Assembly (NCBI GenBank): GCA_964619675.1
Contig: CAZUEO010000004.1
Location: 43,411-107,410, forward strand
Source: an uncultured Planctomycetaceae bacterium
Lineage (GTDB): Bacteria > Planctomycetota > Phycisphaerae > Sedimentisphaerales > UBA12454
Reading direction: 5' to 3'
DNA: 64,000 nucleotides
Position 1 is the first letter of the stretch; the number at the start of each line of letters is the position of its first letter. The position numbers were made by a program, and so were the translations under genes. The notes under the pieces were generated by a model, which saw nothing but the letters and a program-made list of their open reading frames with translations, did not search any database and was not told the origin of the DNA. Below, one piece after another: positions 1,839 to 58,135 of this stretch.

Positions 1839-4800
1839 ATGAACACGTGCAAATCTGTCAGGATGATTATCTTATCGTTTCTGGTTTTAATTTCCTCTGC
1901 GGCTTTGGCGACGACATATTATGTCGACCCCGGCGGCAGCGATGACGCCAACGGCTTATCGTGGGCAACTGCTTTTGCTACCATCCAGAAAGGAATAAAA
2001 GAAGCCAATGATGGCAATATAAGTGATTATGCGGTTGTATATGTTAATTCCGGGACTTATTTGACGGGCCCTATTCATTTTTACGATAATAATGTAAAAG
2101 TTATTTTTAAGGAAAATGTTGAAGTTCTCGCAAGAAGCAATTACGACCTTAATGAGCCGAATCTTTTCGCAGGTACCACGGCTTGTCTTGTTCAAGCGAT
2201 AAATAAAGAGAATATCATTATTGATGGAAATAATACTGTGCTTCGTATGAGGAAGTCGGAATACACCTCAGGGGAATGGCGAATGGTTATTAATTTGTGG
2301 AACTGCACCAACGTTAGTTTGAAGTCGCTGATATTAAAAGACAGCGGTGGTGATGGCATATACATCGGTCAATACGAAGAAGACGAAGCAATAGCTTGTA
2401 AAGATATAAGTATCGAGAACGTAACCTGTGACAACAATTATCGGAATGGTATTAGTGTAGTAAGCGTTGACGGGTTGACTATTGAAAATTGCGTCATAAA
2501 AAATACCAATGGTGCTCCTGCCGGCCCATGGGCAGGCATTGACTTTGAACCAAATTGGGACTATGAGCTGTTGAAAAACATAAATGTAAGAAATATCCGA
2601 ATGGAGGACAACAAGGGGAGTGGCGTAACGGTAACTGCATGGAGACTTGACTCGGATCCTAATGACATAAGTATAACATGCGAAAATTTATATATAAGGG
2701 GAGGGGACAACGCAGGTATTCAGGTTGTAGGTATAGGTGACAGCAATGACCATAATGGACCTGACGGTTTGATTACATTCAGTAATGTTACAGTAGAGGA
2801 TGCGAATCGGGGAGCCTGGATATGGAAATCTTACAGCAAAGCAGGTCTTGTTTTTAATAATTGCGTATGGAAAAATTCCGCAGAATATGCAGTATTAATA
2901 GATGATCGTTGGTACATTCATCAGCCTGGAGGAGTAGATTTTAATGACTGTCAGGTATTCGAAAATGCGGACCGACCTGCTATAATCTATAGTGGAGGTG
3001 AGGCTATATATGATATTCATGGCGATATTTATGTCCAAAATGACCTTCGCAGCACAAATTTGTATGACTGGAACGGAGCCCAACCCAATGATGTTGATGT
3101 AGATGTCAATTCCGGCATAGCAGATTTCTGCAAGGCTTATAACAGAACACAAAACAGATGGCATGCAACTATTCAGGCGGCAATTGACGATGCGAATAAT
3201 AACGATCTAATTGAAATCCAAAAGTGCACTCACTACGAGAGCATCGATTTTGGCGGCAAGGCGATAACGTTACAAAGTACCGACCCTAATGACTGGGATG
3301 TCGTTGCAGCCACAATCATAGACGCCAATGACTCCGGCGATGCGGTTACATTCAGTAACAGCGAAGACGCCAATTCGGTATTGAGGGGCTTTATAATTCA
3401 AGGAAGCTCTTATAATGGCATAGTTTGCAGTAATGGTGCTACACCCATAATTAAAAATTGCATTGTCAGTGGTGGTAAAGGAATAGATTGCGCTGGTAGT
3501 GGAACTGCTCCAGTCATTTCCAACAACATAGTCAAAGATTGTGATATTGGGATATGGTGCCGTATCATTGCTTCACCGGTTATAAAGAATAATTTAATAT
3601 ATGATAATGGCAATGGGATACTTACATCTGCTGCTGGTGTGGTAGAAATTAAAAATAATACCATAGTAAATAGTGCCAACTGTGGCATACAGGTTCTTGG
3701 CATAGAACCAGTTATAAGCAATTGCATTATTTGGGATTGTAATGATGATTTATACAATTGCAGCGCAACTTACAGTTGTATCGAAGATTCTTTTGATTCC
3801 AACGATCCGAATTTTGTGGGCAGCATCAATAGCAATCCATGTTTTGTAGCTGCGGATGCTAATGATTTCCATTTAATCGGCCTTTCTCCCTGCATCGATA
3901 GCGGCGACCCAAATGAAAATTGTGCTGGCCAGGTGGACATTGACGGCCAAGCCAGGCTCGTAGACGGTCGGGTTGACATGGGTGCAGACGAGAGGCAGGG
4001 ATATGAAACATACGGCATGGAAATAGAATCTGTGTCCCAGGATTCCAACGGGATTACTGTCATAACAACCGGGGCAAGGTATGTTCTAAACGGCACCGGA
4101 ATTAAAATGTATCGCAGAATAGACCCCAATACCAATTCTATAAACGAAAGAGAGGTTGCTGAATTGGCTTTTGATGCCGATATCGGCTCACTGTCCATTG
4201 AGTTTTTCGACACCCGTAGAGCTTTGGTAGATAGCGACAAGGCGACATTTGATTTTCAGTCAGATTCGCTGTTTTTTGTGACCGCCAAGGAAGATGTTAA
4301 TGTTACGCATACCAATCTTATTGCAAATGCTCCGTGGAATGCACCGTTAGACCCAGACGAGAGAGACCTGGACAGGATGTGGACGGACGGTTATGGAGGC
4401 TCGCTGCTTGCAAGTATATCGCAGGCAACCGCCGGTTCTGTTATATCTGAGGACGTAGATTTTACTACGGTCAGCCTGTTGCCAGGAGATGAAACTGCTC
4501 ATATGGTTTACCCCGCCAAGCCTTTTGACTTCAATGGCCTTTACGGAACAAATGCAAGACCGTTTATGTACTATTTATTTAATACAACTGAAATGAACGA
4601 TTTTGTGAATAATACAAATAATTTTAGACAAAACTTAGTGGATGATGGGTTTGGTGTAATAATGTTGTGGAACGCGGTGTATACAAATTCTCACACACCT
4701 CAACTTTTGGATTCGGATCCTGATATCCTTGGATATAACGTATCGGACCCAAACTATGTTAAGAACATTATAAATGTAGCTCATGCCAATGAATTCAAGA

Positions 4801-5975: not shown

Positions 5976-6971
5976 TTGCAAATGCAGGTTATAGAAACAC
6001 TTGAAAAACTTGATGATAAGCTCAAAGGCTGCTGTCTGACGATAGGCAATTTTGACGGCGTTCATCTGGGCCATAGGAAAATTATTGCCGCTGCCCGGCA
6101 AATCAGTGAAAAATTCGGCAATTGTCCCGCTATCGCTATGACTTTTGACCCGCATCCGGTGGCTATTCTGCACCCGGAAAAAAGCCCTCAGGTTTTAACG
6201 CCTCTGCCGTTGAAGAAGGCCCTGCTCGAAGCAGCAGGCATTGATTATCTGATTATTCTTAAGGATAGTTACGAGCTTTTGACGCTGTCGCCGGCCGATT
6301 TCGTTGATGATTTTTTGAAGGAAACTATTGCTCCAAAGGTTGTAATTGAAGGCGACGATTTCCATTTCGGCTATGGCCGAAGCGGTAATGCCCAACTTCT
6401 CCAGCAGCTTGGAAAACGGCTCGGCTTTGAGGTTGTCATTATTGAGCCTGAGGAAATAAATCTTGATGGCAGTCCTGCGAGGATTTCAAGCACGTTAATT
6501 CGGCATTTATTGCAGGCCGGCAAGGTTGCCGTTGCTGCGAAGGCTCTTGGCAGGCCGTATCGTCTTGTGGACAGGGTTTCCAAAGGCAGGGGCATAGGCA
6601 CTCATCTTGGTTTTCCGACTGCCAATATCGAGCCTCAGGGGCAGATTATTCCTGCCGAAGGCGTTTATGCTGGTTTCGTCTCTGTTGCTAATAATATTGA
6701 AAAATTATGTGTATTAAGTCAGAAAATTCCTGCCGTTTTTAGTCTTGGCAGAGCAAAGACGTTTATTTCCGCTCATCCTTTACTGATTGAAGCTCACATA
6801 CTCGATGACAAAGTTGGAGATTTGTATAATAAATATTTAGCGATGGATTTTGTTGATTTTATCCGTCATCAGCAGCGTTTTGAAACCGAAGAGGAACTGA
6901 AAAAACAGATTGCAGAAGACTGTAAGAAGGCAAAAGGTGCATTAGGAACTCACAGGAGGGATTTTCCTTGA
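5976..6971 (+). CDS. ribF: Bifunctional riboflavin kinase/FAD synthetase
   Basis: TIGNFDGVHLGH, FHFG, ISST, GRGIGTHLGFPTAN and IEAHILD motifs. Confidence 0.96.
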   Translation: MQMQVIETLEKLDDKLKGCCLTIGNFDGVHLGHRKIIAAARQISEKFGNCPAIAMTFDPHPVAILHPEKSPQVLTPLPLKKALLEAAGIDYLIILKDSYELLTLSPADFVDDFLKETIAPKVVIEGDDFHFGYGRSGNAQLLQQLGKRLGFEVVIIEPEEINLDGSPARISSTLIRHLLQAGKVAVAAKALGRPYRLVDRVSKGRGIGTHLGFPTANIEPQGQIIPAEGVYAGFVSVANNIEKLCVLSQKIPAVFSLGRAKTFISAHPLLIEAHILDDKVGDLYNKYLAMDFVDFIRHQQRFETEEELKKQIAEDCKKAKGALGTHRRDFP

Positions 6972-7666
6972 GGGTAACACAAAATCATAGGAGTGACGGC
7001 TATATTTTGTTGTTGATGCTTTTGGCAGTTATATTATTAGGCATGTTTTTTTCCTATAAAGCGTGGAGAGGTCACGGAGTAAAAACCCAGACCGGTCAGG
7101 AATTGAAAAATCCTCCCTGGCGGCAGTGGAAAAATATCCGGAAATGCCTTGCTCGCGGCGGTTTTGGAAAACCTGATTCGCAGCAGCCTCAAATTGCCGA
7201 AATCATTGGATTAAGAGAGAATCTTTTTGAAGGTCAGGATGAAAGAGGAACGATTGTATTAATGTTTTATCCCGATTATACTATTAAGGGAACTTGGCAG
7301 GGCACTTTCTTCATAGACCCCAATAGGAGCAGGGAGTTTCAACTGGCGGACTGTGAAATTAAAGGTTATTTAATACCTGATGAGACTGATGTAGGTGTGG
7401 CCAAAAAGACTGAGCCCGGAAAAATTTACTTTCTTTCAAAGGGTTTTTTTATGCTGGTTGATTACAATAGCCAAACCCGTAAAACGAATAAGTTAACGGG
7501 TGATCTTTACGTGTCCGGCTGGCTTTTGCCCGATTTATCGATTCAGCAGGGTCAGGCGGTTATGACTTCTGATAAGGAGCATTTTAAGTTGTTTGATTTC
7601 TCAGGCAAAGCTGAAAAAATGGATATTAATTTAGAGTTGCTTTTTAAGGGATTGCAGCAAAAATAG
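6968..7666 (+). CDS. Hypothetical membrane-anchored/exported protein with a prepilin-like N-terminus
   Basis: 232 aa, TTG start overlapping the ribF stop. Leader ...RSDG|YILLLMLLAVILLGMFF. No recognisable domain after it. Confidence 0.55.
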   Translation: MRVTQNHRSDGYILLLMLLAVILLGMFFSYKAWRGHGVKTQTGQELKNPPWRQWKNIRKCLARGGFGKPDSQQPQIAEIIGLRENLFEGQDERGTIVLMFYPDYTIKGTWQGTFFIDPNRSREFQLADCEIKGYLIPDETDVGVAKKTEPGKIYFLSKGFFMLVDYNSQTRKTNKLTGDLYVSGWLLPDLSIQQGQAVMTSDKEHFKLFDFSGKAEKMDINLELLFKGLQQK

Positions 7667-7745
7667 TCGGATATTTTTGATTTTTAATATTTAATTTCGT
7701 TAAATCAGTGAAATCTGCGTAATCAGCGATTAAAAAAGGAACTAA

Positions 7746-8750
7746 ATGGCTGCAACGGATAATTTTAAAAAAGCGATTGATTTAATTAACAGTACAAACA
7801 ACTGGCTTGTAACCTCTCATACTCGCCCTGACGGCGATGCGGTGGGGTCGGTGAAAAGTTTTTGCGAGATTGCCGGGCAATTGGGCAAAAAGGCGAAGCC
7901 GCTGCTGCTGTCGCCGCCGGCGGAATGGTATAAATTCATATTCGATACGCCAGTGCCGGTGCTCGGAAATGATGTAAAACTTGAAGAACTGCAATCCGGC
8001 AAATTCGGTAAATTTGACCTTGTAGTGATTGTCGATACAAATAGCTATGTTCAGCTTGCCGAGTTCGATAAATGGCTCAAAGTTTCAAAAATACCCGTGC
8101 TCGTTATCGACCACCACCTTACAGGAGACGGTTTAGGCACCGTTGAAGTTATTGATTCAACTGCGGCAGCGACCGGCGAAATAATCCTCGACCTGCTCAA
8201 ATTCACCGGCTGGAAAATCACACCAGCCATCGCTGAAGCACTCTATGTTGCCCTGTCAACTGATACAGGATGGTTTAGATTCGATAATACCGATGCCAGA
8301 GTAATGCGCAACGCCTCAATACTTATCGAATTCGGAGCGAAACCTGCTGAAATTTATCGCAAGATGTATCAAAATTATTCGCCTGCCAGACTCAAACTCC
8401 TCGGCAAAATGCTTGAAAACCTCCAGCTTTACCACGAGAATAAAATTGCCCTGATGTTTATTATGCGCAGCGACTTTGATTCAACAGGTGCTACGGGAAC
8501 GGATACCGAAGATTTCGTAAACGAATCACAACGTATCAGGTCGGTGGAGGCATCGGCGTTGTTTGTGGAGCTGAAAGACGGTGGTTTCCGCTGCTCGCTG
8601 CGCAGCAATGGCAGTGTCGATGTCCGTAAAATCGCGCAAAAATTCGGCGGCGGAGGTCATAAAGTGGCCGCAGGCGTAAACCTTAAAGGCCCGCTTCAAG
8701 CGGCAAAAAAAATGATTCTCGATGAAATTGAAAAACAAATGGCTTCTTAA
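7746..8750 (+). CDS. nrnA: DHH/DHHA1 bifunctional oligoribonuclease/PAP phosphatase
   Basis: HTRPDGDAVGS, IDHH, TDTGWF, SLRS and FGGGGHKVAAG motifs. Confidence 0.93.
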   Translation: MAATDNFKKAIDLINSTNNWLVTSHTRPDGDAVGSVKSFCEIAGQLGKKAKPLLLSPPAEWYKFIFDTPVPVLGNDVKLEELQSGKFGKFDLVVIVDTNSYVQLAEFDKWLKVSKIPVLVIDHHLTGDGLGTVEVIDSTAAATGEIILDLLKFTGWKITPAIAEALYVALSTDTGWFRFDNTDARVMRNASILIEFGAKPAEIYRKMYQNYSPARLKLLGKMLENLQLYHENKIALMFIMRSDFDSTGATGTDTEDFVNESQRIRSVEASALFVELKDGGFRCSLRSNGSVDVRKIAQKFGGGGHKVAAGVNLKGPLQAAKKMILDEIEKQMAS

Positions 8751-9330
8751 CCACAGATTACACGGATTTTTTCAGACACGGATTAACACGGGATTTACGC
8801 GGATTTTTTCAATAACTAAAGAATGATAGGGTCATTTTAAAATCCTGCCAACCCCCCCTAAAAAGGGGTACTTTTAGGGTCAAACAGAAGAGATCTCGGG
8901 GGACCCCCCTCTAAAGCAGGGTCAAATTAAAAATTGAAGATTTTACATTGAAAATTGAAGATTTAGTCCTGCGTCATTGGGTTGCGGTTGCGCTGCTCGT
9001 TTCGTATTACGTAAGACGGTTACGTATAAATTTTAAACGCTGATTAAGCAGTATATGGTATATGGTATTTGGTATATGGCATTTAGCGGAATATCAAAAA
9101 TCAAAAATTAAAATGCAAAATTGTGGAGTTCGGCCTTTGGCCGAGACCTTGTTTTTATATTTATTCACCACAGAGCTCACGAAGGACACGAAGAAGTCCA
9201 GAGTATTTGGCATTTAGTATATGGTATTTGGTGAAAGGAACCGCCTGCGGCGGACTAAAGAAAAATGCAGTTGCCGCCGGAGGCGGGGAAGTTTTTTAGC
9301 CATAAATCACGCAGATTTAGCCTCCTTTAT
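8749..9330. repeat. Mosaic of short repeat elements (9-bp CACGGATT-type units, CCCCC/GGGG hairpins, 7-bp arrays, CCGCC-N3-GGCGG hairpins)
   Basis: cacagatta/cacggattt/cacggatta (8752-8815). ccccccctaaaaagggg and cccccctctaaagcaggg. (aaattga)n. tatatgg/tatttgg arrays at 9052 and 9204. Hairpins at 9131, 9241 and 9274. Confidence 0.8.
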
Positions 9331-9438
9331 CATTCAATATTCATTATTTTTGCAGCGAAAAAGGCTTGCATTTTCAGGATGGTCCAGGTATCCTCTTATA
9401 GTCAAGTTTCGTAGGAGTTTAAATAATATAATGAGGAC

Positions 9439-11796
9439 GTGATTGTGTTTAATGCATATCGCGAAGTATTAGTTATTGCCGGCCTTGTCTTTTGTTTATT
9501 CTCATCAGCATTTGCCTACTCCGGCGGATCAGGAACGCAGCAAGCCCCATACCAAATCGCCGATGCTAATGACCTGTTGCAATTGGCGGCAACCACATCA
9601 GATTACAACAAATGCTTTATCCTGACAGCGGATATTGATATGGAGGGGCAGGTCTTTACGACGGCAATCATTGCCGGCGATACTATTGCGGGTAATTATA
9701 GTTTCGAGGGGGCGGCCTTTACGGGGACGTTTGACGGCAACAACCATAAAATCACGAATTCTACCATCAACGGCGGAAGCAATGACTACCTCGGTTTATT
9801 TGGTTATCTTTTTGACAGTGGTTCGGTGAAAAACCTTGGCCTTGAGAACTGTTCTGTCAGCGGTGATTCTAATTCTTATTTTGTCGGCGGCCTGGTGGGA
9901 CGTAACGACGGCAGTATCAGCAATTGCTATTCGACAGGTTCTGTCAGCGGTCGCTCGGTTGTCGGCGGGCTGGTGGGATACAATGAGGATGGCAGTATAG
10001 CTAATTGTTATAGTATGGCCGAAGTCAGCAGCAATGGTGGAGCCGGCGGATTAGTGTCGTCCAATAACGGTCATATAGCAAACTGCTACAGCACGGGAGC
10101 AGTAAGTGGAAATATTTATGGTGTTGGTGGACTCGTAGGGGAAAATTCCTGGCTTGGCGACATAACAAAATGTTACAGCACCGGCGCGGTTAGCGGCGGT
10201 GGCGACATCGGTGGATTGGTTGGACGGAACGAAGAAGATGGCCTTGTAACAATCAGTTTTTGGGATGTTGAGACTTCCAGCTTAACAATAAGTGATGGAG
10301 GCAACGGCCTAAGTACCGAAGAGATGAAGCACATGACAATTTATTCTCTTAAAGACTGGGCTGGGAACGACTGGACTATCGATGATGGAAATGAATATCC
10401 TCGTCTTGCCTGGGAAAACGCCGTGGGCCAACCAATAGCTGAACCAAATGTTCCATTAAATGGCAGCGGCACTGCCGAGTGCCCTTATGAAATTAGAAAC
10501 GCCCAAGATCTGCAATTGTTGAGTTTTGCATGCGCGTTGTGGGATAAGCATTTTGTTTTAATAAATGATATAGATGTAAATAATTATAATATTGAGCCAA
10601 TAGGTTACGACATCAGACGAGAAGAGCTGTATGGTGGTTATGTAATATATTATGGATTAGAATATCAATTCCAGGGAGTCTTAAATGGCAATGGGCATGT
10701 TATATCAAATCTTATTATTGACGCTAATGATATGGAATATGTAGGGCTTTTTAGATATATAGGTTCGAACGCAATCATAAAAAATCTTGGAATTGAAGAT
10801 GCTAACATAATCGGGGGTTCTTATGTTGGCTCTCTGGTGGGACTAAATAATGGCAGCGTAAACAACAGCTATAGCACAGGTATAGTTAATAGTAATGGTT
10901 CTTATGTCGGTGGGTTGGTTGGCGAGAATTATGGCGGTAATATATCAGCCAGCTACAATACCACAGAGGTTAGTGGAGAACAATCTTGCTGCGGCGGTTT
11001 GGCCGGATATAACGACGGTGATATATTGAACTGCTACAATACGGGAATAGTTAATGGTTCTGATTGTGTGGGCGGACTGATTGGATGGAATGACGATGGA
11101 TGGAATGACGACCATAGAGTGGAAAACTGCTACAATGCAGGAACAGTCGGTGGAGATAATTATAGTGTCGGTGGTTTGGCAGGGAGTAATGGCGGCTATA
11201 TAATCAACTGTTACAATATCGGATCGGTTGTTGGCGGCAGTTCTGTCGGTGGTTTGGTGGGAGAAAATTATATATGGCAAGATAGTTTTGGTTTATTAAC
11301 AATTTCTCCCGGCAGCATAACTAACTGTTATAGTACCGGAGATGTTGACGGTGACAGTCCTGTAGGTGGTTTGGTAGGAGATGATTCGTACGGATCGTAC
11401 GGCATTGCCGAACAGTCTTTCTGGGATGTCAATACTTCCGGCCAGACGGAAAGTGCCGGCGGAGAAGGAAAGACCACAGAGGAAATGCAAACACTTTCAA
11501 CATTTACCTCCGCAGGCTGGGATTTTTCTTATACTGACGGTGACCCTGCGGACTGGTTTATACAAATAGAAGAGTATCCGATTCTTGTCTGGCAGATATC
11601 GCCTGCGGATATCTATACCGACGGAAGAAACAACTTCAGGGATTTCGCGGTGTTTGCGCAATACTGGATGAGAGATGATTGCGCGATATATAACTATTAC
11701 TGCGACTGGGCGGATCTGAACTTTGACGGCTCTGTAGATATCGATGACCTTATCGTGCTTATGAGCTATTGGCTCCAGTCAGGGATATATGAGTAG
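9439..11796 (+). CDS. Secreted GLUG-motif repeat protein with dockerin-like C-terminus
   Basis: Signal peptide. Many VGGLVG.N.G.I.NCYSTG repeats in two blocks, each preceded by G.GT...PY.I..A.DL. Tail DLNFDGSVDIDDLIVLMSYW. Confidence 0.85.
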   Translation: MIVFNAYREVLVIAGLVFCLFSSAFAYSGGSGTQQAPYQIADANDLLQLAATTSDYNKCFILTADIDMEGQVFTTAIIAGDTIAGNYSFEGAAFTGTFDGNNHKITNSTINGGSNDYLGLFGYLFDSGSVKNLGLENCSVSGDSNSYFVGGLVGRNDGSISNCYSTGSVSGRSVVGGLVGYNEDGSIANCYSMAEVSSNGGAGGLVSSNNGHIANCYSTGAVSGNIYGVGGLVGENSWLGDITKCYSTGAVSGGGDIGGLVGRNEEDGLVTISFWDVETSSLTISDGGNGLSTEEMKHMTIYSLKDWAGNDWTIDDGNEYPRLAWENAVGQPIAEPNVPLNGSGTAECPYEIRNAQDLQLLSFACALWDKHFVLINDIDVNNYNIEPIGYDIRREELYGGYVIYYGLEYQFQGVLNGNGHVISNLIIDANDMEYVGLFRYIGSNAIIKNLGIEDANIIGGSYVGSLVGLNNGSVNNSYSTGIVNSNGSYVGGLVGENYGGNISASYNTTEVSGEQSCCGGLAGYNDGDILNCYNTGIVNGSDCVGGLIGWNDDGWNDDHRVENCYNAGTVGGDNYSVGGLAGSNGGYIINCYNIGSVVGGSSVGGLVGENYIWQDSFGLLTISPGSITNCYSTGDVDGDSPVGGLVGDDSYGSYGIAEQSFWDVNTSGQTESAGGEGKTTEEMQTLSTFTSAGWDFSYTDGDPADWFIQIEEYPILVWQISPADIYTDGRNNFRDFAVFAQYWMRDDCAIYNYYCDWADLNFDGSVDIDDLIVLMSYWLQSGIYE

Positions 11797-11905
11797 GGCG
11801 GAGTTATCAAAATAGCTTATAATGAACCGGATTCTTTCTGGGATGCCGCAATGGTGATTTGGATTTACAAGATGATGTTATCCTTACCGTTTTTTGGGAA
11901 GGAAG

Positions 11906-11925
11906 ACCCGCCGTGAAACGGCGGG
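11906..11925. terminator. Hairpin between convergent genes (possible bidirectional terminator or REP-like element)
   Basis: cccgccgt-gaa-acggcggg perfect stem. Confidence 0.5.
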
Positions 11926-12015
11926 CTAAATGTTTACAGATTACCCCTCATTTACATTCGGGGCTCCGTGGATTCGAAATTCAACACCGCCCCGATGAAG
12001 TAGTTTTAAGGAAAC

Positions 12016-12085
12016 ACCCCAGTTAGATAGCTAAAGCATCACCAAGCAGCTAACTAACGCATCTAACGGGGCAAGCGGGGTAAAC
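12016..12085. repeat. Palindromic element, family CCCCG(T/A)(T/G)AGA...TCT(A/C)ACGGGG ending GGGGTAAAC
   Basis: Left arm ACCCC(A)GTTAGAT 12016-12028, right arm ATCTAACGGGGC 12061-12072, then AAGCGGGGTAAAC. Confidence 0.75.
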
Positions 12086-12153
12086 CTTCTTTATTAGACT
12101 TTAATTCACACATCATTCAGCACTGCGAAGTCACCGTCCGTCTTCGCCAAGGG

Positions 12154-12735
12154 CTACGCCGAGACTTGTGGGAAGTTCAAGACAGCAAACTCAGCGTGAT
12201 AAATTTTGGCGGCCTGGTCATAGGCTTTTGCGGCATCTATTTCATTATCAAAAAAGCCAAGATGCTCACGAGTGCCGTTGTGAGTTATAGTAGCCCGCCA
12301 TCTGCCGCCATCGCGTTTGACGCCTTTATATATGGAACTGCCTAAGCCGGGGACCTTTGCCCTGTTGGCGGCGTTCTGGGCAGGTGTGGCAAACCTTAAA
12401 TTCGCCTTTCGATTGTCAAGGCCATTGCGATTTTTGTGGTCAATAATAGAGCCGGCAGGGGCCTGCAAAATTAGCCTGTGCATATTTATCGTTATGTGCC
12501 TGCCGTTTTCACGCACAGACCGCACAGCATAGAAAGTATTACGGTGCTTTTTCGCATACCAGTCGAATTTGTTCAGCTCTTCGAAATCCTGCGGGTCAAC
12601 GATGGCAAATTTGTCCTGCGTAAGCGGGATTAGCCGAAATTCAAAACCATAGTTGCGTTTTCGGTAGCGCAGCAAAAAGGCGACGCCGATGTGTTCCAAA
12701 ATGTTCGGAACTTTAATGGGAAGGTTTAGGTACAT
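12154..12735 (-). CDS. HNH endonuclease fused to an AP2 DNA-binding domain
   Basis: MHRLIL...IDHKNRNGLDNRKANLR (HNH_3-like), then SSIYKGV...WRATI...HLGFF..EIDAAKAYD.AA...HAEFAVLNF (AP2). Confidence 0.92.
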   Translation of the reverse strand: MYLNLPIKVPNILEHIGVAFLLRYRKRNYGFEFRLIPLTQDKFAIVDPQDFEELNKFDWYAKKHRNTFYAVRSVRENGRHITINMHRLILQAPAGSIIDHKNRNGLDNRKANLRFATPAQNAANRAKVPGLGSSIYKGVKRDGGRWRATITHNGTREHLGFFDNEIDAAKAYDQAAKIYHAEFAVLNFPQVSA

Positions 12736-12748
12736 AGCTGGCTCCCGT

Positions 12749-13050
12749 AAAAAATTGAAAATTGAAAATTTGTGGAGTCCGCCTTAGGCGGAGTTATTTT
12801 AAATCTTAAATTCATTTCACCTTTCTACTCTCTATTCCCGACTTTCTATGTTGCCTTTTTCGAAAATCGACAATCGAAATTTGACCACAATCAAAAATGA
12901 AAATGGATATTCGAAAGTCGAAAATCGAACATTACAAATAAAAGCGCTAATTTTTCAAACTCTCGACTTTCGATTCTCGACTTTTTATGTTGCCTTTTTC
13001 GACTTCAAATTCTTCATTTTTCAATCTTCATTCTTCAATTTTCAATATAT
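12749..13050. repeat. (AAATTGA)n-GTGGAGT-CCGCC-TTA-GGCGG element followed by 7-bp-periodic arrays
   Basis: Hairpin 12779-12791. cgaaaat/cgacaat/cgaaagt and ctcgact/ttcgatt/cttcatt/tttcaat heptamer runs at 12860-13045. Confidence 0.8.
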
Positions 13051-13243
13051 AAGCCCCTCCGTATTACCTGAAAAGTTGCGCGTTTTAGTAAAAAAATCGG
13101 CAAAAATTCCGGGGTCAAAATTCATAAGTCCTTGTCAGAAAAGGGACCAATTTTTTTGAGATTTTCAAAACGCGCACGTTTTTTTTTGCGCGTTTTGGAA
13201 AAAAATTGAAGCCACAGAGGATATAAAAAGTATGGTTTTAGCC

Positions 13244-13293
13244 ACCCCGATGAGATAAATCTCGCCTGCGGGCGGACATCTCACGGGGTAAAC
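13244..13293. repeat. Second copy of the CCCCG..AGAT/ATCT..CGGGG-TAAAC palindromic element
   Basis: ACCCCG(A)TGAGAT 13244-13256, ATCTCACGGGGT 13278-13289, then AAAC. Internal cgcc-tgcg-ggcg hairpin. Confidence 0.75.
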
Positions 13294-13582
13294 TCCGAAC
13301 CGAAGGCAGCAACTGATTCCAATTAAAAAATGAAGATTGAAAATTTGCGGAACGCCTTTGGTGGGAAATTTTAGGGGTTCAATTTTTCATTTTCGCAGGG
13401 GTTTCGCTGTTTTTGTATTTTCTCCCGCACTATCGCGGTTTATTTTTATCCGGCTCTTATAACCGATAACTTATCACTTGTGCACTTTTGCTCAACGTTT
13501 ATTATTGGATAGACGGCAATAAAGGCCATAAAATCAAATAAAGAAATTGGCTATAACCTGCCCCAATCCTATATTTTGATTG

Positions 13583-20709: not shown

Positions 20710-21675
20710 ATGGAAGAAATCAGGCAGAGAAAGCGAAATAAACGCAAGCCGACGATTGTTGAGCAGTGGCTGGTCTATATTTTATTGAGAATATTTCTGT
20801 TTTTCATTTTTCTGTTTCCTGTTGAAAAAGTGCTTAAATTCGCCTGTTTTTTAGGCAGAGGCTTATGGAAGCACTATCATCGCGGCAGACAAAGGGCGAT
20901 AGAAAATCTAAAGGCAAGTTTTCCCGACAAAGACAATGCGTGGATAGAGCAGGTCGGCAAGCGAAGTTTCGAGCATCTTGTAATGCTTGCAGTGGACGTG
21001 ATTTTTTCTCCTAAGGTGATACGAAAGGACAATTGGGAGCGATATTCGAGCTATAAAAACGTCGAACGCGTAAAGTGGATGATGGCAGGGCACCAGCCTT
21101 TACTGCTTGTCGCGGCGCATTACGGCAATTTTGAGATTATGGGCTACCTGCTGGGCGAGTTCGGTTTTGATATTTACAGTATCGCAAGGCCGTTCGATAA
21201 CAGATTTCTTAACAAATATCTTTATGACGTTCGGCAGCGCAGGGGACAGAAAATCATCGATAAAAAAGGTGCTGCAGAACAAATGGAGCAAATTGTTAAG
21301 CAGGGCTCGACGCTTTGCTTTATAGCCGACCAGAACGCGGGAAAGAAAGGAATATTTGTTGATTTTTTCGGCAGAAAGGCAAGCACGTATAAAAGCATCG
21401 GACTGCTGGCGATTCAGTATAATCTGCCGATAGGCGTTGGGATCAGCAGGAGGGCAGGAAACAGGTTCTTTTTTGAAATAGAGGCAGCAAGGCTGATTAT
21501 GCCTGCGGAGTGGAAAGATAAAGACGACCCGCTATTATGGATTACGCAGGAATATACAAAGGCATTTGAGGATTCTATCCGCAAAGACCCGACGCAGTAT
21601 TTGTGGATACACCGCAGATGGAAAACAAGGCCAAAGGATGAAAATGGCCACGAAGACACAAAGGCACTAAGATAA
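20710..21675 (+). CDS. Lipid A biosynthesis acyltransferase (LpxL/HtrB family)
   Basis: AAHYGNFEI, FIADQNAG, VDFFGRKA, DPTQYLWIHRRWK. C-terminal GHEDTKALR is encoded by a repeat element. Confidence 0.9.
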   Translation: MEEIRQRKRNKRKPTIVEQWLVYILLRIFLFFIFLFPVEKVLKFACFLGRGLWKHYHRGRQRAIENLKASFPDKDNAWIEQVGKRSFEHLVMLAVDVIFSPKVIRKDNWERYSSYKNVERVKWMMAGHQPLLLVAAHYGNFEIMGYLLGEFGFDIYSIARPFDNRFLNKYLYDVRQRRGQKIIDKKGAAEQMEQIVKQGSTLCFIADQNAGKKGIFVDFFGRKASTYKSIGLLAIQYNLPIGVGISRRAGNRFFFEIEAARLIMPAEWKDKDDPLLWITQEYTKAFEDSIRKDPTQYLWIHRRWKTRPKDENGHEDTKALR

Positions 21676-21748
21676 TTTAAAATTTAAGATTTAAAATTTA
21701 AGATTTGCCGTTATAATTTCTCAAGAATAGTATTTTACGGAGAATATT

Positions 21749-25300: not shown

Positions 25301-25829
25301 GAGTTTTTTAGGACTTTGTCGGATTTTTGGTGGGATTTTCTTTTTTGACGAAAAGCTCAATTTAAGATGCGTTGATTGACAGGGCATATCGCTTACAGGT
25401 ATTGCAGATAGAAGCACTTACGTTTTTCGATTTTTTAGAATATAAAAACCCGATATCCGGTGGTTTTATCTCCGGTTTAACATTGAGGGGTTTCTTCACT
25501 AACCGTATCCGAACAAAACTTATCGGGAATAGATTTTGTGCCGTTTTGCGATGTTATTATTTATTTCTTACATTTTTTAACCAGCCAGTGTGATTGTCGG
25601 GCGTGTTAGTCCTGTCGTATTATACAAAGTCCATGGTTTTATGAGACGTTGCAGACGTCATTTAAATGCAAAAGGCGGTCAGCCAAAGTAATAAAGGTTA
25701 AGTTCCGCTGCTGCATAACCGATAGCGCTGGCAGAAATCCGCTTCCGCCAACCACCGGGGGGTAAAGCGGTAGAACAGCATTTTAAAAATAAAGATTAAA
25801 GATTTTCCTTAGAATTTAAGGAGAAGAAA

Positions 25830-26288
25830 ATGAGAAAGAGAAATGGTTTTACACTGGTTGAAATTTTGATAGTGGTGATTATTCTGAGTATTCTGGCTGC
25901 GATAGTAATTCCGCAGTTCAGCGGTGCGAGCGAGGAGGCAAAATTGGCGAGTTTAGTGAGCGACCTGCAGACAATCCGTTCGCAGATTCAGCTTTACAAA
26001 GCTCAGCACAATCATGGCACTACCTGTCTACCAGGAACGGTGTCCGGTGTTGATTTCGAAAATGCGATGACGAAATACACGGTGAAGGCAGGTACACTGG
26101 CTGCCACGCAGGCTCCGGGCGATGGTGTTTATGGTCCTTATCTGCTGAAGATACCGCGAAATCCGTTTGATGATGTCAATAGTGTAGTTGAAGGTACAAG
26201 TACGCCTGACGAAGCCGGCGGCTGGTATTACAATACAGATACAGGTGCGTTTAATGCGAATGACGACGCCACACACACCGGTTATTAA
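25830..26288 (+). CDS. Type IV major pilin / GspG-like pseudopilin, copy 1
   Basis: Class III leader MRKRNG|FTLVEILIVVIILSILAAIVIPQF with E+5. Confidence 0.9.
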   Translation: MRKRNGFTLVEILIVVIILSILAAIVIPQFSGASEEAKLASLVSDLQTIRSQIQLYKAQHNHGTTCLPGTVSGVDFENAMTKYTVKAGTLAATQAPGDGVYGPYLLKIPRNPFDDVNSVVEGTSTPDEAGGWYYNTDTGAFNANDDATHTGY

Positions 26289-26417: not shown

Positions 26418-26516
26418 CTCCGGTATGAAGGACGAAGAAGATTATGGTAAAGATGACAGTGAAAGATAAAACCTTTACTCTACGTTGAGGCTCTGCCTTG
26501 AAACACGGAGAAGAAA

Positions 26517-26975
26517 ATGAGAAAGAGAAATGGTTTTACGCTGGTTGAGATTTTGATAGTGGTGATAATTTTGAGTATTCTGGCCGCGATAGTAATTCCG
26601 CAATTCAGCGGTGCCAGCGAGGAAGCAAAATTGGCGAGTTTAGCGAGCGACCTGCAGACAATCCGTTCGCAGATTCAGCTTTACAAGGCTCAGCACAATC
26701 ATAGCCCTGCCAGTCTGCCGGGAACGGCACCCAGTGTTAGTTTCAAAGATGCGATGACAAAATACACAGAAAAAGATGGAACACTGGCTGCCACGCAGGC
26801 TCCGGGCGATGGTGTTTATGGTCCTTATCTGCTGAGGATACCGGACAATCCGTTCAACGATAGTAACGACGTGTCTCTTGGAGCTGAAGCAGGAGACGGT
26901 TCCACAGGCTGGTGGTATAGCACTACAACTGGTGCATTTAAGGCAAACGACAATGAAGAACACGCCGGTCTGTAA
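26517..26975 (+). CDS. Type IV major pilin / GspG-like pseudopilin, copy 2
   Basis: Same leader as copy 1. First 62 aa differ at one residue, C-terminal segments diverge. Confidence 0.9.
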   Translation: MRKRNGFTLVEILIVVIILSILAAIVIPQFSGASEEAKLASLASDLQTIRSQIQLYKAQHNHSPASLPGTAPSVSFKDAMTKYTEKDGTLAATQAPGDGVYGPYLLRIPDNPFNDSNDVSLGAEAGDGSTGWWYSTTTGAFKANDNEEHAGL

Positions 26976-28096: not shown

Positions 28097-29271
28097 TGAG
28101 ATTTTATAAAAGGTACAATCGCGGCACCCGTTGCGACTCTGTCGCACCGCGGCGAAAAGGAATTGCCCTGATTATTATGTTGGTGCTTATAACGGCCATA
28201 GTAGTCATCGGACTCGGTTTTATTGTTCGCGGCGATATGGAACTTCTATGCGGACAGAATATGGAACTGAAGGCCGATATGGATTATCTTGCGGAATCAG
28301 GCCTTGAGCATGCAAAAGGACTGATTTTAAATCCACAGGATGTGTTGACAGATTATTGGACAGGAGCTACGGGGCAGCAGTTAGTCAGTGGAGATGATTA
28401 TTATGATGTTACCATTTCACAGCTTTCTTCATTCAATTATCGGATAACAAGTTTGGCGTATCGCGAAGGCAGCATGCCTGCCCAGGAAAACCTGACCGCA
28501 GAATTGCGTCTTAATCCTTGTATTGTTTACCGGCAGTCGGCTGACAAGGATATTGAAAGTTCAGTTGTTATAAATGGGGATGCATATTTTGGCGACAAAG
28601 TTACTAATTATGGAAGCATAAACGGTGATGTTTATTCCGCAAAAGCGATAAACAATGTCCCGCCAGGCCAGATTCAGGGGCAGAGTTATTCGAATGTATC
28701 ACAGGCCCCTTGTAATACGCCTGGAATCTCATATTCCAATTTCAGTTCAACGTATTATATCGGTGCCAATTCATATTCTGTTGAGCAGCTTGCACCCGGT
28801 GATTATAACAGCCTGACCTTGTTGCCCAACGCTGGAAATCCCGCGGGTGTTTACTATTGTAATGGAAATTTGACTATAATGGGCAGTGCAACTATCAATG
28901 GGACCCTTGTTGTTAAGGACGATTTTAGCATAAAGGATTTAGGCAATGTAACAATCCAGTCTGTAAAGAATTTTCCCGCATTGATTGTTGGCAAAAAGCT
29001 GGACATGGAAAAAGACAATACCATGCTCACCGCAACAGGATATACTCAGGTAGGCGATCATATTGATATGCATGATAAATCAGGCTGTTCAATCACCATT
29101 TATGGTGCGTTGTATATCCTCGATGACGGCATCAAAAACGCTACGGGCTGCAGTGTATTGGTGGATGGCATGCCTCACAAGGCGTGCCTTGCAATCTGGT
29201 CAAGCGGAGAGAATTTGACCCGCTGGTCACCTGCTGCAGGAGCATTCTACAAATCAATCACAAGAAATTGA
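28096..29271 (+). CDS. Minor pilin, PilX/GspK-like
   Basis: RRKG|IALIIML lacking E+5; ADYLAESGLEHA PilX-N motif. Confidence 0.8.
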   Translation: MRFYKRYNRGTRCDSVAPRRKGIALIIMLVLITAIVVIGLGFIVRGDMELLCGQNMELKADMDYLAESGLEHAKGLILNPQDVLTDYWTGATGQQLVSGDDYYDVTISQLSSFNYRITSLAYREGSMPAQENLTAELRLNPCIVYRQSADKDIESSVVINGDAYFGDKVTNYGSINGDVYSAKAINNVPPGQIQGQSYSNVSQAPCNTPGISYSNFSSTYYIGANSYSVEQLAPGDYNSLTLLPNAGNPAGVYYCNGNLTIMGSATINGTLVVKDDFSIKDLGNVTIQSVKNFPALIVGKKLDMEKDNTMLTATGYTQVGDHIDMHDKSGCSITIYGALYILDDGIKNATGCSVLVDGMPHKACLAIWSSGENLTRWSPAAGAFYKSITRN

Positions 29272-29366
29272 AAATTTAAGATTGAAAATTTGTGGAACCG
29301 CCTTTGGCGGGACTATCTTTGAATAGTTTTAATTATTCATTCTTCAATCTTCATTCTTCAACTTAG
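29266..29366. repeat. (AAATTGA)n-GTGGAA-CCGCC-TTT-GGCGG element with inverted heptamer wing
   Basis: Hairpin 29298-29310. Right wing ttcattc/ttcaatc/ttcattc. The left wing contains the stop codon of the PilX-like gene. Confidence 0.8.
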
Positions 29367-56002: not shown

Positions 56003-58135
56003 ATGTCAGCAGAAAAAACAATCCTAATTTCATCACTAATTATCATCATAGCGAGCATTGCAGCCAAGGCAAATACCGTGATTTATGTGGATGCAAATGC
56101 TAATGGCCTGAATGATGGAACATCCTGGCAAAATGCCTATAATTTTCTGCAGGACGCTCTATCCGATGCTAATACGTCAAGCAAACCGATAGAAATATGG
56201 GTGACTGCTGGGACGTATAAGCCGGATTGTAACTGGGCCGAGCCCAACGGCACAGGCGAGCGGGAAGCGACATTTAGCCTGCTCAACAATGTCGCAATTT
56301 ACGGCGGATTTCCATCAGGCGGAGGGCCGTGGGAGTCTCGAAACCCCAACGACCCGAATAACGAAACCATTCTCAGCGGCGACCTTCTGGGAAATGACAG
56401 CCAGGGCATTGACCCATGCGATTTACAAAACGACTCGAATCGTGCTGAAAATAGTTATCATGTAGCAACAAGTAGAGGAACTGATGGAACGGCCATTATA
56501 GATGGCTTTGCCATCACAGGCGGCAATGCCAATGGTGATTGTGAATACCAGCCTTGCTACGGCGGTGGTATGTTCAACGAATCCAACAGTAGTCCGTCTG
56601 TAACCAATTGCACTTTTATCAGAAACTCGGCTAGTGTCGGCGGCGGCATGTGCAACGAATCTAATAGTAGCCCGTCTATAACCAATTGCACTTTTATCAG
56701 AAACTTGGCTGGTCGCGGCGGCGGCATGTGCAACGAATCTAATAGTAGCCCGATAGTAATCAATTGCACATTCAGTGAAAACTCAGTACTTAATGAGAGT
56801 GCTTGCGGTGGTGGAATGTACAATCATGACCGGTCCAGCCCAAAGATTATCAATTGTATATTCAGTAAAAACTTTGCATCTTATATGGGTGGCGGGATGT
56901 GCAACTATGATAATAGCAGCCCGATGGTGACAAAGTGCACATTCGTAGAAAACTGGGCATGGGCATACTCGGGCGGTGGAATACACAACTTTCATTATAG
57001 TTACCTGACAGTAGCAAATTGTACGTTCACTGGAAACAAGGCATACGGTAATTTAGATTTTGCTACTTCCGGTGGTGCAATAGAGAACGGTTGTTATAGC
57101 AACATCACAATAACCAATTGCATATTCAACAAAAACTCCGCCGGTCACGGCGGTGCGATATGCAATCCCATCCCACTCGACGGTAACGTAGCAATAACAA
57201 ATTGTGTATTCAGCGGAAATTTTGCTCACGGTGGTTTCGCCAGCGGCAGCCGCGGCGGAGCGATTTACAATTCTGGAAATGCAGCGATTGATAATTGCAC
57301 ATTCACTGGAAATTCGGCATTTTTCTACGAGGATGCTTATTGCTCCGGGAACGCTTGCTATGCTTATGGCGGTGGGATATATAACGATGGTGGTGTAGCG
57401 GTTGACAACTGCACTTTCAGCGGAAACTTGGCAGAAGACGGATATGGTGGCGGAATACATAACAACAGCATTGGAATGATTGAGATTGCCAATAGTGTCC
57501 TCTATAACAATACGGCTTCAGAGGGCAATGAGATAGCTTTGAGAGATTCTTCCACAGCAGATATCAATCACAATGACGTTAAGGGCGGTCAGGATGGAGT
57601 TTATATTGAACCCTTCTGCACATTGATTTGGGGACCGAATAATATTGATGCCGACCCGTGTTTTGTCGAGCCTGGATACTGGGACAGTAATGGTACGCCT
57701 GCCGATGCAAATGATGACTTCTGGGTTGAAGGCAACTATCGGCTGCTGTCAGACTCGCCCTGTATTGATGCAGGCGATAATAACTCTGTACCACCCGATT
57801 ATGCCGACCTCGATAAAGACGGCAACACGGCCGAGCCGACGCCGTTGGACTTGGATGGCTTTGCGCGATTTATAGATGACCTGTGTGTTGTCGATGCCGG
57901 CAATGGCACACCACCTATCGTAGATATGGGCGCTCATGAATTCCTGAGAAGCAATATTAACCACGATGGTGCAGTGGACTTTTTAGACTTGGCGGTGTTG
58001 GTTGACCAATGGCTGCAATCACCAGGTGTCCCATCTGCTGATATTGCGCCTCAGCCGCCATGTAGTGATGGTATAATAAATTTCCTTGATTTTGCAGCTC
58101 TGGCGGAATGGTGGCTTGCAGGGACTGTTTTTTAA
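56003..58135 (+). CDS. Secreted beta-helix protein with GGG(M/I).N (Pmp-like) repeats, choice-of-anchor-Q-like region and dockerin-like tail
   Basis: Signal peptide, IYVDANANG.NDGTSW..AY..LQDAL, GGGM.N...SP...NCTF..N repeats, SPCIDAG, VDMGAHEF, DGAVDFLDL...W. Confidence 0.85.
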   Translation: MSAEKTILISSLIIIIASIAAKANTVIYVDANANGLNDGTSWQNAYNFLQDALSDANTSSKPIEIWVTAGTYKPDCNWAEPNGTGEREATFSLLNNVAIYGGFPSGGGPWESRNPNDPNNETILSGDLLGNDSQGIDPCDLQNDSNRAENSYHVATSRGTDGTAIIDGFAITGGNANGDCEYQPCYGGGMFNESNSSPSVTNCTFIRNSASVGGGMCNESNSSPSITNCTFIRNLAGRGGGMCNESNSSPIVINCTFSENSVLNESACGGGMYNHDRSSPKIINCIFSKNFASYMGGGMCNYDNSSPMVTKCTFVENWAWAYSGGGIHNFHYSYLTVANCTFTGNKAYGNLDFATSGGAIENGCYSNITITNCIFNKNSAGHGGAICNPIPLDGNVAITNCVFSGNFAHGGFASGSRGGAIYNSGNAAIDNCTFTGNSAFFYEDAYCSGNACYAYGGGIYNDGGVAVDNCTFSGNLAEDGYGGGIHNNSIGMIEIANSVLYNNTASEGNEIALRDSSTADINHNDVKGGQDGVYIEPFCTLIWGPNNIDADPCFVEPGYWDSNGTPADANDDFWVEGNYRLLSDSPCIDAGDNNSVPPDYADLDKDGNTAEPTPLDLDGFARFIDDLCVVDAGNGTPPIVDMGAHEFLRSNINHDGAVDFLDLAVLVDQWLQSPGVPSADIAPQPPCSDGIINFLDFAALAEWWLAGTVF
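56561..56790 (+). repeat. Three intragenic 78-bp tandem repeats
   Basis: Units start at 56561, 56639 and 56717 (ggcgg[ct]gg[ct]atgt[tg]caacgaatc[ct]aa[ct]agtag...). Confidence 0.85.

Follow-up and report, generated by a model that had tools for sequence, protein, structure and literature searches.

The window, a 64,000-nucleotide stretch of contig CAZUEO010000004.1 from an uncultured Planctomycetaceae bacterium, encodes on its minus strand (12154..12735) a 193-residue protein in which an HNH nuclease motif is joined to an AP2 DNA-binding domain. We read this HNH-AP2 gene as a resident copy of an ancient, expanded and mostly vertically inherited family of small nucleases in Sedimentisphaerales (Phycisphaerae). 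The palindromes found on both sides of it would then belong to a separate family, similar to repetitive extragenic palindromic (REP) sequences, that gathers at the borders of HNH-AP2 cassettes. We give this reading a probability of about one half. Each copy belongs to a cassette that measures about 1 kb and comprises a 5' block of ~160 nucleotides (nt), a variable AT-rich spacer and the open reading frame (ORF). HNH-AP2 proteins, which reportedly were treated by Magnani and colleagues in the Plant Cell in 2004, are commonly regarded as sporadic homing endonucleases of phages or introns. Against that usual view stands a large, old, chromosomally fixed family of paralogues with its own conserved cis element, and one may ask why selection, within a single bacterial order, maintains dozens of nuclease genes together with a noncoding block of 160 nt.

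An old chromosomal family of HNH-AP2 proteins

In the HNH-AP2 protein, a His-Me finger like that of I-HmuI (HNH_3) is followed by an AP2 DNA-binding domain. Pfam scores HNH_3 above its cut-off (30.7 bits, cut-off 24.8) and AP2 under its gathering cut-off (27.1 bits, E-value 5e-6, cut-off 33.3). A profile of 18 family members, compared with known structures, matches the AP2 domains of WRI1, TEM1 and ERF1 at E-values from 5e-21 to 4e-9 and the HNH homing endonuclease I-HmuI (1U3E) at 1.7e-4, and the protein itself matches PHROG 99 ("HNH endonuclease") at 3.6e-34. An AlphaFold2 model computed from 79 sequences has a mean predicted local distance difference test (pLDDT) score of 94; it builds the AP2 domain from three strands and a helix and places the HNH motif in a beta-rich middle. 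Foldseek searches with the model return plant AP2 domains with probability 1.0 (TM-score 0.79 to 1GCC) and, among His-Me finger proteins, I-HmuI (0.97) and I-PpoI (0.82). The parts of the protein are an N-terminal helix (residues 11-29), the beta-rich region, the HNH_3 motif (D99 H100 ... N108 N112 N121) and the C-terminal AP2 domain (~130-190). None of the 79 homologues departs from D99, H100, N108, N112, T117 or the AP2 core, and N121 is almost as constant. Because those five residues of the nuclease part do not vary, the protein likely retains a working nuclease site.

As a first-pass annotation of the window had stated, the gene is free-standing: its neighbours are a GLUG-repeat protein and gyrA, and no phage, intron or intein features are found around it. 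Its family is large. The window protein has 977 homologues at an E-value of 1e-3 or better, the closest of them from Sedimentisphaerales and Phycisphaerae metagenome-assembled genomes (MAGs), and a scan of one genome per GTDB species finds at least 521 loci that encode HNH-AP2 relatives. Among the best 80 loci, a single MAG may contribute several copies (nine in JBGOWI01, nine in CAZBLD01, five in JBEKRK01), and paralogues within the family are ~50% identical to each other; copy number and divergence together make the family multi-copy and old. Multiple copies show past spread only. At least 441 relatives, at 40-50% identity, lie on phage contigs of IMG/VR, and their matches span residues ~32-190, so without the N-terminal helix (residues 1-30). 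A phage origin of the cassette was considered in view of these relatives and rejected: 1.03 Mb of viral loci carrying them contain neither the block nor the palindromes. Full-text literature searches found no description of this HNH-AP2 family in Planctomycetes or Sedimentisphaerales.

Gene order shows that the window copy has kept its place between genomes. In the three closest relatives (loci L001, L005/L006 and L002/L007), the HNH-AP2 protein is 63-81% identical to the window copy and its gene follows fabF, serS and comEC. On the 3' side of the gene come a variable segment and then, all on the opposite strand, DHH/DHHA1, a gene of ~230 codons and ribF (ribF in L005/L006). The window keeps the same relative order and orientation, with ribF, a 232-residue gene and the DHH/DHHA1 gene at 5976..8750 on the plus strand; the DHH proteins are 79-83% identical to those of the relatives, the 232-residue protein 54-61% and RibF 81%. 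The window gene is a positional orthologue of the copies in three other genomes. The divergence of HNH-AP2 is about equal to that of its housekeeping neighbours, which argues for long vertical inheritance under selection and not for recent mobility. No presence/absence polymorphism of the gene at a defined site was found. The first-pass annotation had suggested a search for empty sites, and none turned up in a comparison of contigs that carry the closest GyrA homologues (88-92% identity); only ~110 nt of the gyrA promoter can be aligned among these relatives, and the region upstream is different in every one.

A variable island adjoins the nuclease gene. The segment between HNH-AP2 and DHH (8751-12153 in the window) differs by genome: the window has the GLUG-repeat protein, L005/L006 a SNIPE/T5orf172 nuclease (8782-11252 in L006), L001 small ORFs (6574-9291), and L002/L007 a DUF6036 gene with a leucine-rich repeat protein (10562-16751 in L007). 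The gyrA locus of one relative (L207) has contents of its own, namely a 590-residue gene at 9947-11719 that fuses an RVT_1 reverse transcriptase to a trypsin-like protease, and a PDDEXK_3 gene directly downstream of gyrA.

The upstream block and a chimeric cassette

The ~160-nt block occupies 13046..13209 on the minus strand (nhmmer E-value 9e-48 in the window) and surpasses the coding sequence in conservation when the window is aligned with orthologous loci. Even where paralogous proteins are only ~50% identical, the nhmmer block profile finds it upstream of the gene, at E-values from 1e-17 to 1e-52. In 1.2 Mb of HNH-centred loci, all 42 matches to a 28-sequence profile lie upstream of HNH-AP2 on the gene strand, 68 to ~700 nt before the ATG, and there are no orphan copies. 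The carriers (the window, L001 and L006-L081) amount to at least 42 HNH-AP2 paralogues and orthologues. The block appears to be undescribed.

Within the block, three AAACGCGCAAG-like / CGCGCAAG motifs run forward, reverse and forward. Two copies of an 11-nt motif face each other as an inverted repeat, a third follows ~95 nt on, and further conserved boxes are present. The inverted repeat, here called hairpin 1 (11-15 bp; arms 13162-13176 and 13187-13201; AAACGCGCAAG, a 6-nt spacer, CTTGCGCGTTT), is the one that the first-pass annotation had seen upstream of the gene. The third motif copy, with CGCGCAA, lies at 13071..13086 on the minus strand, ~95 nt downstream of the inverted repeat. A second small palindrome (TTTGACGAAAATTCGTCAAA), a box (CTGACAAGGACTTA / ACAAGCACTTACAAA) and an almost invariant end (GGTAATACGGAGGG / GTAATACGGAGGG) complete the block. 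A wider regulon for CGCGCAAG was considered and rejected; in the window the motif is confined to the block, with counts no higher than in shuffles.

RNAalifold, run on 28 sequences and both strands, supports only hairpin 1 (forward) or a pairing of motif 2 with motif 3 (reverse). Hairpin 1 is the sole part of the block with covariation support, and Rfam returns no match for the block even at E-values up to 5. A structured RNA was rejected on these grounds as the primary reading of the block, and a small ORF was rejected because indels between loci disrupt the reading frame. Distant paralogues retain both direct copies of the motif and drop the inverted one. Since structure beyond one hairpin and an Rfam match are lacking, and the direct motifs are kept even at a distance, we infer that the block is a shared DNA-level control region (terminator/operator plus promoter) and not a structured RNA.

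A control region of this kind brings in a different account of the whole arrangement. The protein could be a domesticated regulator whose AP2 domain binds the CGCGCAAG motifs of the block and autoregulates a co-regulated set of paralogues, with no role for the nuclease in rearrangement; palindromes moved by some other enzyme would then survive better in long AT-rich low-complexity intergenic DNA. Long vertical inheritance, at an evolutionary rate near that of housekeeping neighbours, suits such a regulator, as does the resemblance of the block to operator or promoter DNA (inverted and direct motif copies, no RNA structure). The palindromes, moreover, often lie within low-complexity repeats such as TTCAATCTTAAATC, which are common in spacers, and an IS110 element has also landed in a spacer. 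The catalytic residues of the HNH motif, however, are invariant in 79 paralogues, which argues for retained nuclease activity; the same DNA shows no enrichment of other hairpin families; and passive tolerance leaves the recurrent duplications of the gene 3' end, described below, unaccounted for. We consider a pure regulator unlikely.

The spacer from block to ATG is variable, AT-rich and of low complexity (12736..13045 in the window; 68-707 nt in other loci). It tolerates insertions: in locus L121 an IS110-family transposase gene (2863-3945) lies between the block and the HNH-AP2 gene. In the window it holds a terminator-like repeat (12751..12804, plus strand) made up of GAAAATTTGTGGA and CCGCC-TTA-GGCGG; the latter, an element already noted upstream of the start codon in the first-pass annotation, forms a hairpin at 12778-12792, 42 nt before the ATG. 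This repeat family has 3-4 copies in the window (9103-9156, 12751-12804, 13321-13370 and 29271-29324). Each consists of an AT-rich GAAAATTGAAAATTTGTGGA, a CCGCC..GGCGG hairpin and a T-rich tail, and the family also occurs in the HNH-AP2 spacers of L011 and L029. Near-tandem AT-rich low-complexity repeats (e.g. TTCAATCTTCATTCTTCAA, TCGACTTTCGATTCTCGA) are found at 8925-8965, 12821-13045, 21674-21713, 25780-25805 and 29317-29364; such repeats occupy many intergenic regions, and palindromes are often embedded in them.

The window departs from its three relatives on the upstream side alone, where it has gyrA in place of comEC. A three-way alignment locates the change. To the left of hairpin 1 (the stretch at 13210-13300), the window follows the flank of L054, a paralogue of just 50% protein identity, and the similarity includes the upstream palindrome and ~60 nt of spacer; the same palindrome stands at the same place in L025. 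To the right of hairpin 1, the window follows its orthologue L006. The junction coincides with the switch of synteny from comEC to gyrA, and the window cassette is a chimera with its crossover in hairpin 1. A different HNH-AP2 paralogue sits 2.4-4 kb upstream of gyrA in other genomes, and recombination between two paralogous cassettes is the simplest account of the chimera. The upstream palindrome would have come with the left flank of another paralogue, joined by recombination inside hairpin 1, and the same event would have swapped the ancestral comEC neighbour for gyrA; the downstream nest of palindromes would already have been at the 3' end of the orthologous lineage. With the crossover in hairpin 1, and two separate histories for the palindromes, these are not two ends of one element. 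The view that they bound a cassette therefore fails: the upstream one came with an L054-type flank, the downstream one is common to L006, and the bracket in the window is a historical accident, not a mobile-element architecture. What the junction does bring out is that the cassettes serve as portable homology for genome rearrangement.

Palindromes and gene remnants at the cassette borders

The palindromes themselves are as first reported, with one shared orientation on both sides of the gene (CCCC..AGAT/ATCT..CGGGG-TAAAC on the plus strand). The upstream palindrome, a GAGAT variant, spans 13245..13288 (plus strand; 13293 with its TAAAC), outside the conserved block, and is homologous to the L054 and L025 flanks. 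The downstream inner palindrome (12017..12071, plus strand) is of type L, with TTAGAT arms and a conserved 32-nt loop, and is identical at 55 of 55 positions to the L002/L007 copy. It is nested within an outer palindrome of the AAGT variant (11990..12085, plus strand), of which arm 11990-12001 is intact and arm 12076-12085 truncated; the outer palindrome and a 20-nt linker are common to orthologue L006, where they lie 3' of its gene. The window has two members of the family and no more, and none arose in 60 dinucleotide shuffles. Folded as single-stranded DNA, the upstream palindrome has a z-score of -4.8 and the downstream nest one of -2.5.

The consensus in gene orientation is [GTTTA or CYTG]-CCCCGTGAGAT-loop-ATCTCATCGGGG, that is, a palindrome of 35-60 nt with an 11-bp stem, one conserved bulged base and GTTTA or CYTG as 5' flank. 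Arm variants preserve pairing (GAGAT/ATCTC, TTAGAT/ATCTAA, GGGAT/ATCCC, GAAGT/ACTTC), and palindromes are often nested two or three deep. They are a REP-like, genome-wide family separate from the HNH-AP2 cassettes. Type L is a subfamily with a long loop, conserved at 31-33 nt (AGCTAAAGCATCACCAAGCAGCTAACTAACGC), with copies in the window, L002/L007 (15913-15967), L019, L025, L034, L056, L062 and L172. Identical type-L copies occur in genomes with ~17-20% divergence in their DHH and RibF proteins, and this points either to a constrained loop or to recent spread. Direct repeats that flank palindromes (AATCCGTG, TTCAATC, AVLN-coding DNA) are of variable length and lie in tandem low-complexity DNA; they may reflect insertion into such DNA.

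The first-pass annotation proposed a test of whether palindromes are enriched at HNH-AP2 flanks, and they are. In 82 HNH-centred loci there are 36 noncoding palindrome clusters, 16 of them near an HNH-AP2 gene (within 600 bp) and 20 far. Cluster density is 0.40/kb within 600 bp and 0.12/kb further away, or 3.2-fold per noncoding kb (binomial p 7e-4). By locus-wise permutation, 13 loci have a nearby cluster where 5.3 are expected (p 4e-4). Other GC-rich perfect hairpins show no such enrichment (1.1-fold, p 0.4). An independent sample comes from a metagenome scan on the palindrome itself, which yields 124 palindromes in 120 loci. HNH-AP2 is within 600 bp of 14 of the 124, against ~3 expected by a rough estimate from the frequency of the gene elsewhere in the same loci. 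It is the only gene family that recurs as a neighbour of the palindromes (18 loci; the next, prfB, is found in 5). No REP-associated tyrosine transposase (RAYT) or IS200-like gene, Y1 enzyme or other transposase recurs beside the 124 palindromes; whole genomes were not searched for Y1 enzymes, and another enzyme elsewhere is possible.

The association is real yet partial. No HNH-AP2 gene lies within 600 bp of ~89% of the palindromes in the independent sample, and 69 of the 82 gene copies (~84%) have no palindrome within that distance. Palindromes stand on both sides of the gene in just 3 of the 82 loci. They may stand to the left of the block, within the spacer or directly behind the stop codon, and they point either way with respect to the gene; for those directly behind the stop codon, a hand count gives 7 in gene sense and 2 reversed, which by simple arithmetic is not significant. 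Palindromes and strong-block cassettes are mostly found in the same MAGs among the sampled loci. On the reading preferred here, palindromes would accumulate about 3-fold in the noncoding borders of cassettes, at any of the three places.

Figures of this kind bear directly on the idea that the HNH-AP2 protein mobilises the bulged palindromes in trans, as a RAYT does with its REPs or REPINs (REP doublets forming hairpins). The enzyme would nick at or next to the hairpin (e.g. between GTTTAC and CCCG at its foot), host repair or replication would copy the element, and the gene would be flanked by its own substrates. The enrichment is specific, at 3.2-fold with none for other hairpins; among the neighbours of the 124 palindromes the gene alone recurs, and transposases do not; type-L copies lie within 600 bp of the gene in six cases out of seven; palindromes and strong-block cassettes mostly share MAGs; and the catalytic residues are conserved. 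The hairpins also have a conserved 5' flank, as REPs do in their GTAG. Set against this are the rarity of the two-sided bracket (3 of 82 loci), inconsistent distances and mixed palindrome orientation, the independent origin of the two window palindromes, and the large unpaired fractions of both palindromes (89%) and genes (84%). We know of no strand-transfer chemistry for an HNH nuclease. The family further consists of many diverged paralogues, in contrast to the one conserved copy of a RAYT (PMC5581495), and RAYTs are typically single-copy (PMC5581495). Mobilisation in trans is, on balance, improbable. Of the RAYT-REP-like cassette put forward in the first-pass annotation, the specific enrichment and the lack of a recurrent transposase survive; the bracket, the gene copy number and the separate origins of the palindromes speak against it. 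We regard as a long shot the wider proposal that HNH-AP2 paralogues, block and bulged hairpin (especially type L) make up a transposase-free system that propagates repeats by nicking and repair. If true, it would be a His-Me finger nuclease analogue of RAYT-REPIN, and the duplications of the gene 3' end would be footprints of cleavage and gene conversion at the gene's own coding sequence.

These duplications are the second peculiarity of the cassette borders. In its uninterrupted form the gene ends in AAKKYHGEFAVLNF-coding DNA. The window gene instead ends in ...EFAVLNFPQVSA and a stop; an inserted short repeat of the TTCGCCAAGGGCTACG type (12136..12168, minus strand) contributes its terminal codons (QVSA) together with the stop (TAG 12154-12156). 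A stop codon inside a repeat had been reported before, and alignment bears this out: the ~35-nt insert is missing from L005/L006. It is single-copy in the window and resembles a dispersed TTCGCCAAGGCTWCG repeat family of other genomes; protein P0005 reads through the same kind of insert. Beyond it, at 12106..12135 on the minus strand, lies a remnant that encodes GDFAVLNDV and a stop, which is the original C-terminus of the L006 type. Another remnant, AVLNFES (11970..11990, minus strand), stands right after the palindrome nest, and its L006 equivalent reads AVLNFPQ. A terminator-like hairpin (TTTAGCCCGCC..GGCGGG) is at 11907..11925 on the minus strand.

Such remnants recur. They represent the last 5-17 codons of the gene (..KKYHGEFAVLNF..), located 3' of the live stop and split off from it by hairpin repeats of several families. 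In 15 of 78 loci (~20%) the signature F-A-x-L-N-F appears in forward frames no more than 300 nt past the stop, and it appears in none of the controls (0/78 in reverse frames, 0/67 at 1.5 kb, 0/72 upstream). Besides the window, the loci are L006, L008, L019, L022, L030, L031, L036, L047, L051, L056, L070, L071, L074 and L078, with tandem arrays of remnants in some (L031, L070). No 3'-end remnant was found at orphan palindromes. The duplicated remnants appear to be undescribed. They could have arisen as long target duplications, as conversion tracts copied from paralogues, or through selection favouring inserts that break up the gene's own target and restore its C-terminus.

Remnants of this form could be a split target. 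Free-standing homing endonuclease genes of phages adjoin their target sites, and the palindromes (especially type L), or the DNA that codes for the C-terminus, might likewise be homing sites, to which cassettes or hairpin inserts spread by cleavage and gene conversion. In 15-21 of 78 loci, remnants come right after inserted hairpins, with none elsewhere, which agrees with this, as do the presence of different hairpin families at the same site, the near-identity of type-L copies across genomes with housekeeping proteins ~17-20% different, and the annotation of phage relatives as homing-type HNH endonucleases. Yet cassette positions are conserved between genomes, so that nothing points to recent homing; the search for empty sites yielded none; the remnants have diverged from the live gene end; and the palindrome arm agrees with the GEFAVLN-coding site at only 9.3 of 18 positions on average, with other gene positions equal to it. 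We hold homing of this kind to be rather doubtful. An origin of the palindrome arm from the GEFAVLN-coding DNA was also rejected: the mean of 9.3/18 exceeds a background of 4.7, but no more than 8 of 80 genes have their best match here, and the arm agrees equally well with other gene positions.

For the reading given at the outset, an ancient family with separate palindromes, we propose the following. Cassette borders, above all the gene 3' end, would be hot spots of break and repair. A possible cause is that the encoded nuclease nicks near its own and paralogous genes, and repair through recombination between paralogous cassettes and template switching would capture hairpin repeats and leave 3'-end remnants. 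The link to a REP-like family and the 3'-end duplications together offer a testable case of a nuclease, not a transposase, that perhaps shapes the distribution of repeats.

Several points weigh against this reading. DNA cutting by HNH-AP2, and the place where it would occur, are predictions from sequence. The enrichment draws on modest counts (16 near, 20 far), on contigs of MAGs and on a crude ORF-based mask of coding DNA. The tightness of the type-L association (six of seven copies within 600 bp of an HNH-AP2 gene in the HNH-centred loci) makes a dedicated functional link fit better than passive accumulation. The block could be a transcribed leader or a small RNA with a sequence-dependent function. 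In one metagenome locus (L201, 513-853) a palindrome and a strong block (E-value 4e-31) precede an SPP1-like portal gene and HNH-AP2 is missing, so the link between block and nuclease is not a strict one. The remnants, finally, are only 55-78% identical to the live gene end, and may be old target duplications or tracts derived from paralogues.

Other repeats of the window are of different kinds. A 300-nt direct repeat (25820-26119 / 26507-26806, 89% identity) extends over two adjacent 152-residue ORFs and looks like a tandem gene duplication. Internal repeats of ~78 nt at 56560-57434, within a 710-residue ORF (56003-58135), mark a repeat-containing protein, and the GLUG protein (9439-11796) carries comparable internal repeats.

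Comparison with known systems

The closest parallel in form is RAYT-REP/REPIN (PMC3116915, PMC5581495), in which short palindromes outside genes likewise bear a conserved 5' flank and are both scattered and clustered between genes, and one protein-coding family is the sole recurrent neighbour. The differences are that a RAYT is a Y1 HUH transposase with a single-copy gene, whereas the enzyme here is an HNH nuclease with at least nine copies in a MAG, and that flanking by repeats on both sides is exceptional (3 of 82 loci). IS200/IS605 elements likewise place a gene between two hairpins of the same orientation, with a TTAC-containing motif at the hairpin foot (GTTTAC-CCCG in the palindromes), but the cassette has neither TnpA nor TnpB, the distances from hairpin to gene are not fixed, and the hairpins are of independent origin. 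With respect to miniature inverted-repeat transposable elements (MITEs), each palindrome is a single hairpin, and its flanking direct repeats are of variable length. IscB/HEARO offers the likeness of an HNH-containing protein preceded by a conserved noncoding element of ~160 nt; the 193-residue protein, in contrast, shows only HNH_3 and AP2 and no RuvC domain, and the block lacks a match to HEARO in Rfam and, apart from one hairpin, any covarying structure.

Free-standing HNH(-AP2) homing endonucleases of phages and cyanobacteria (the I-HmuI/HNH_3 class, PHROG 99) have the same pair of HNH_3 and AP2 domains, and both groups are small proteins with the catalytic D-H...N...N motif. Unlike them, the window family is chromosomal, with many diverged paralogues per genome in positions kept between genomes, and it has an extra N-terminal helix and the conserved 160-nt upstream block. 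Phage nuclease genes at recombination boundaries (PMC10448857) provide the parallel for the genomic setting, since there too a nuclease gene stands at the edge of a variable segment, and here the left border is a rearrangement junction. The window differs from them in that the setting is a bacterial chromosome and that the homology is supplied by the paralogous cassettes themselves.

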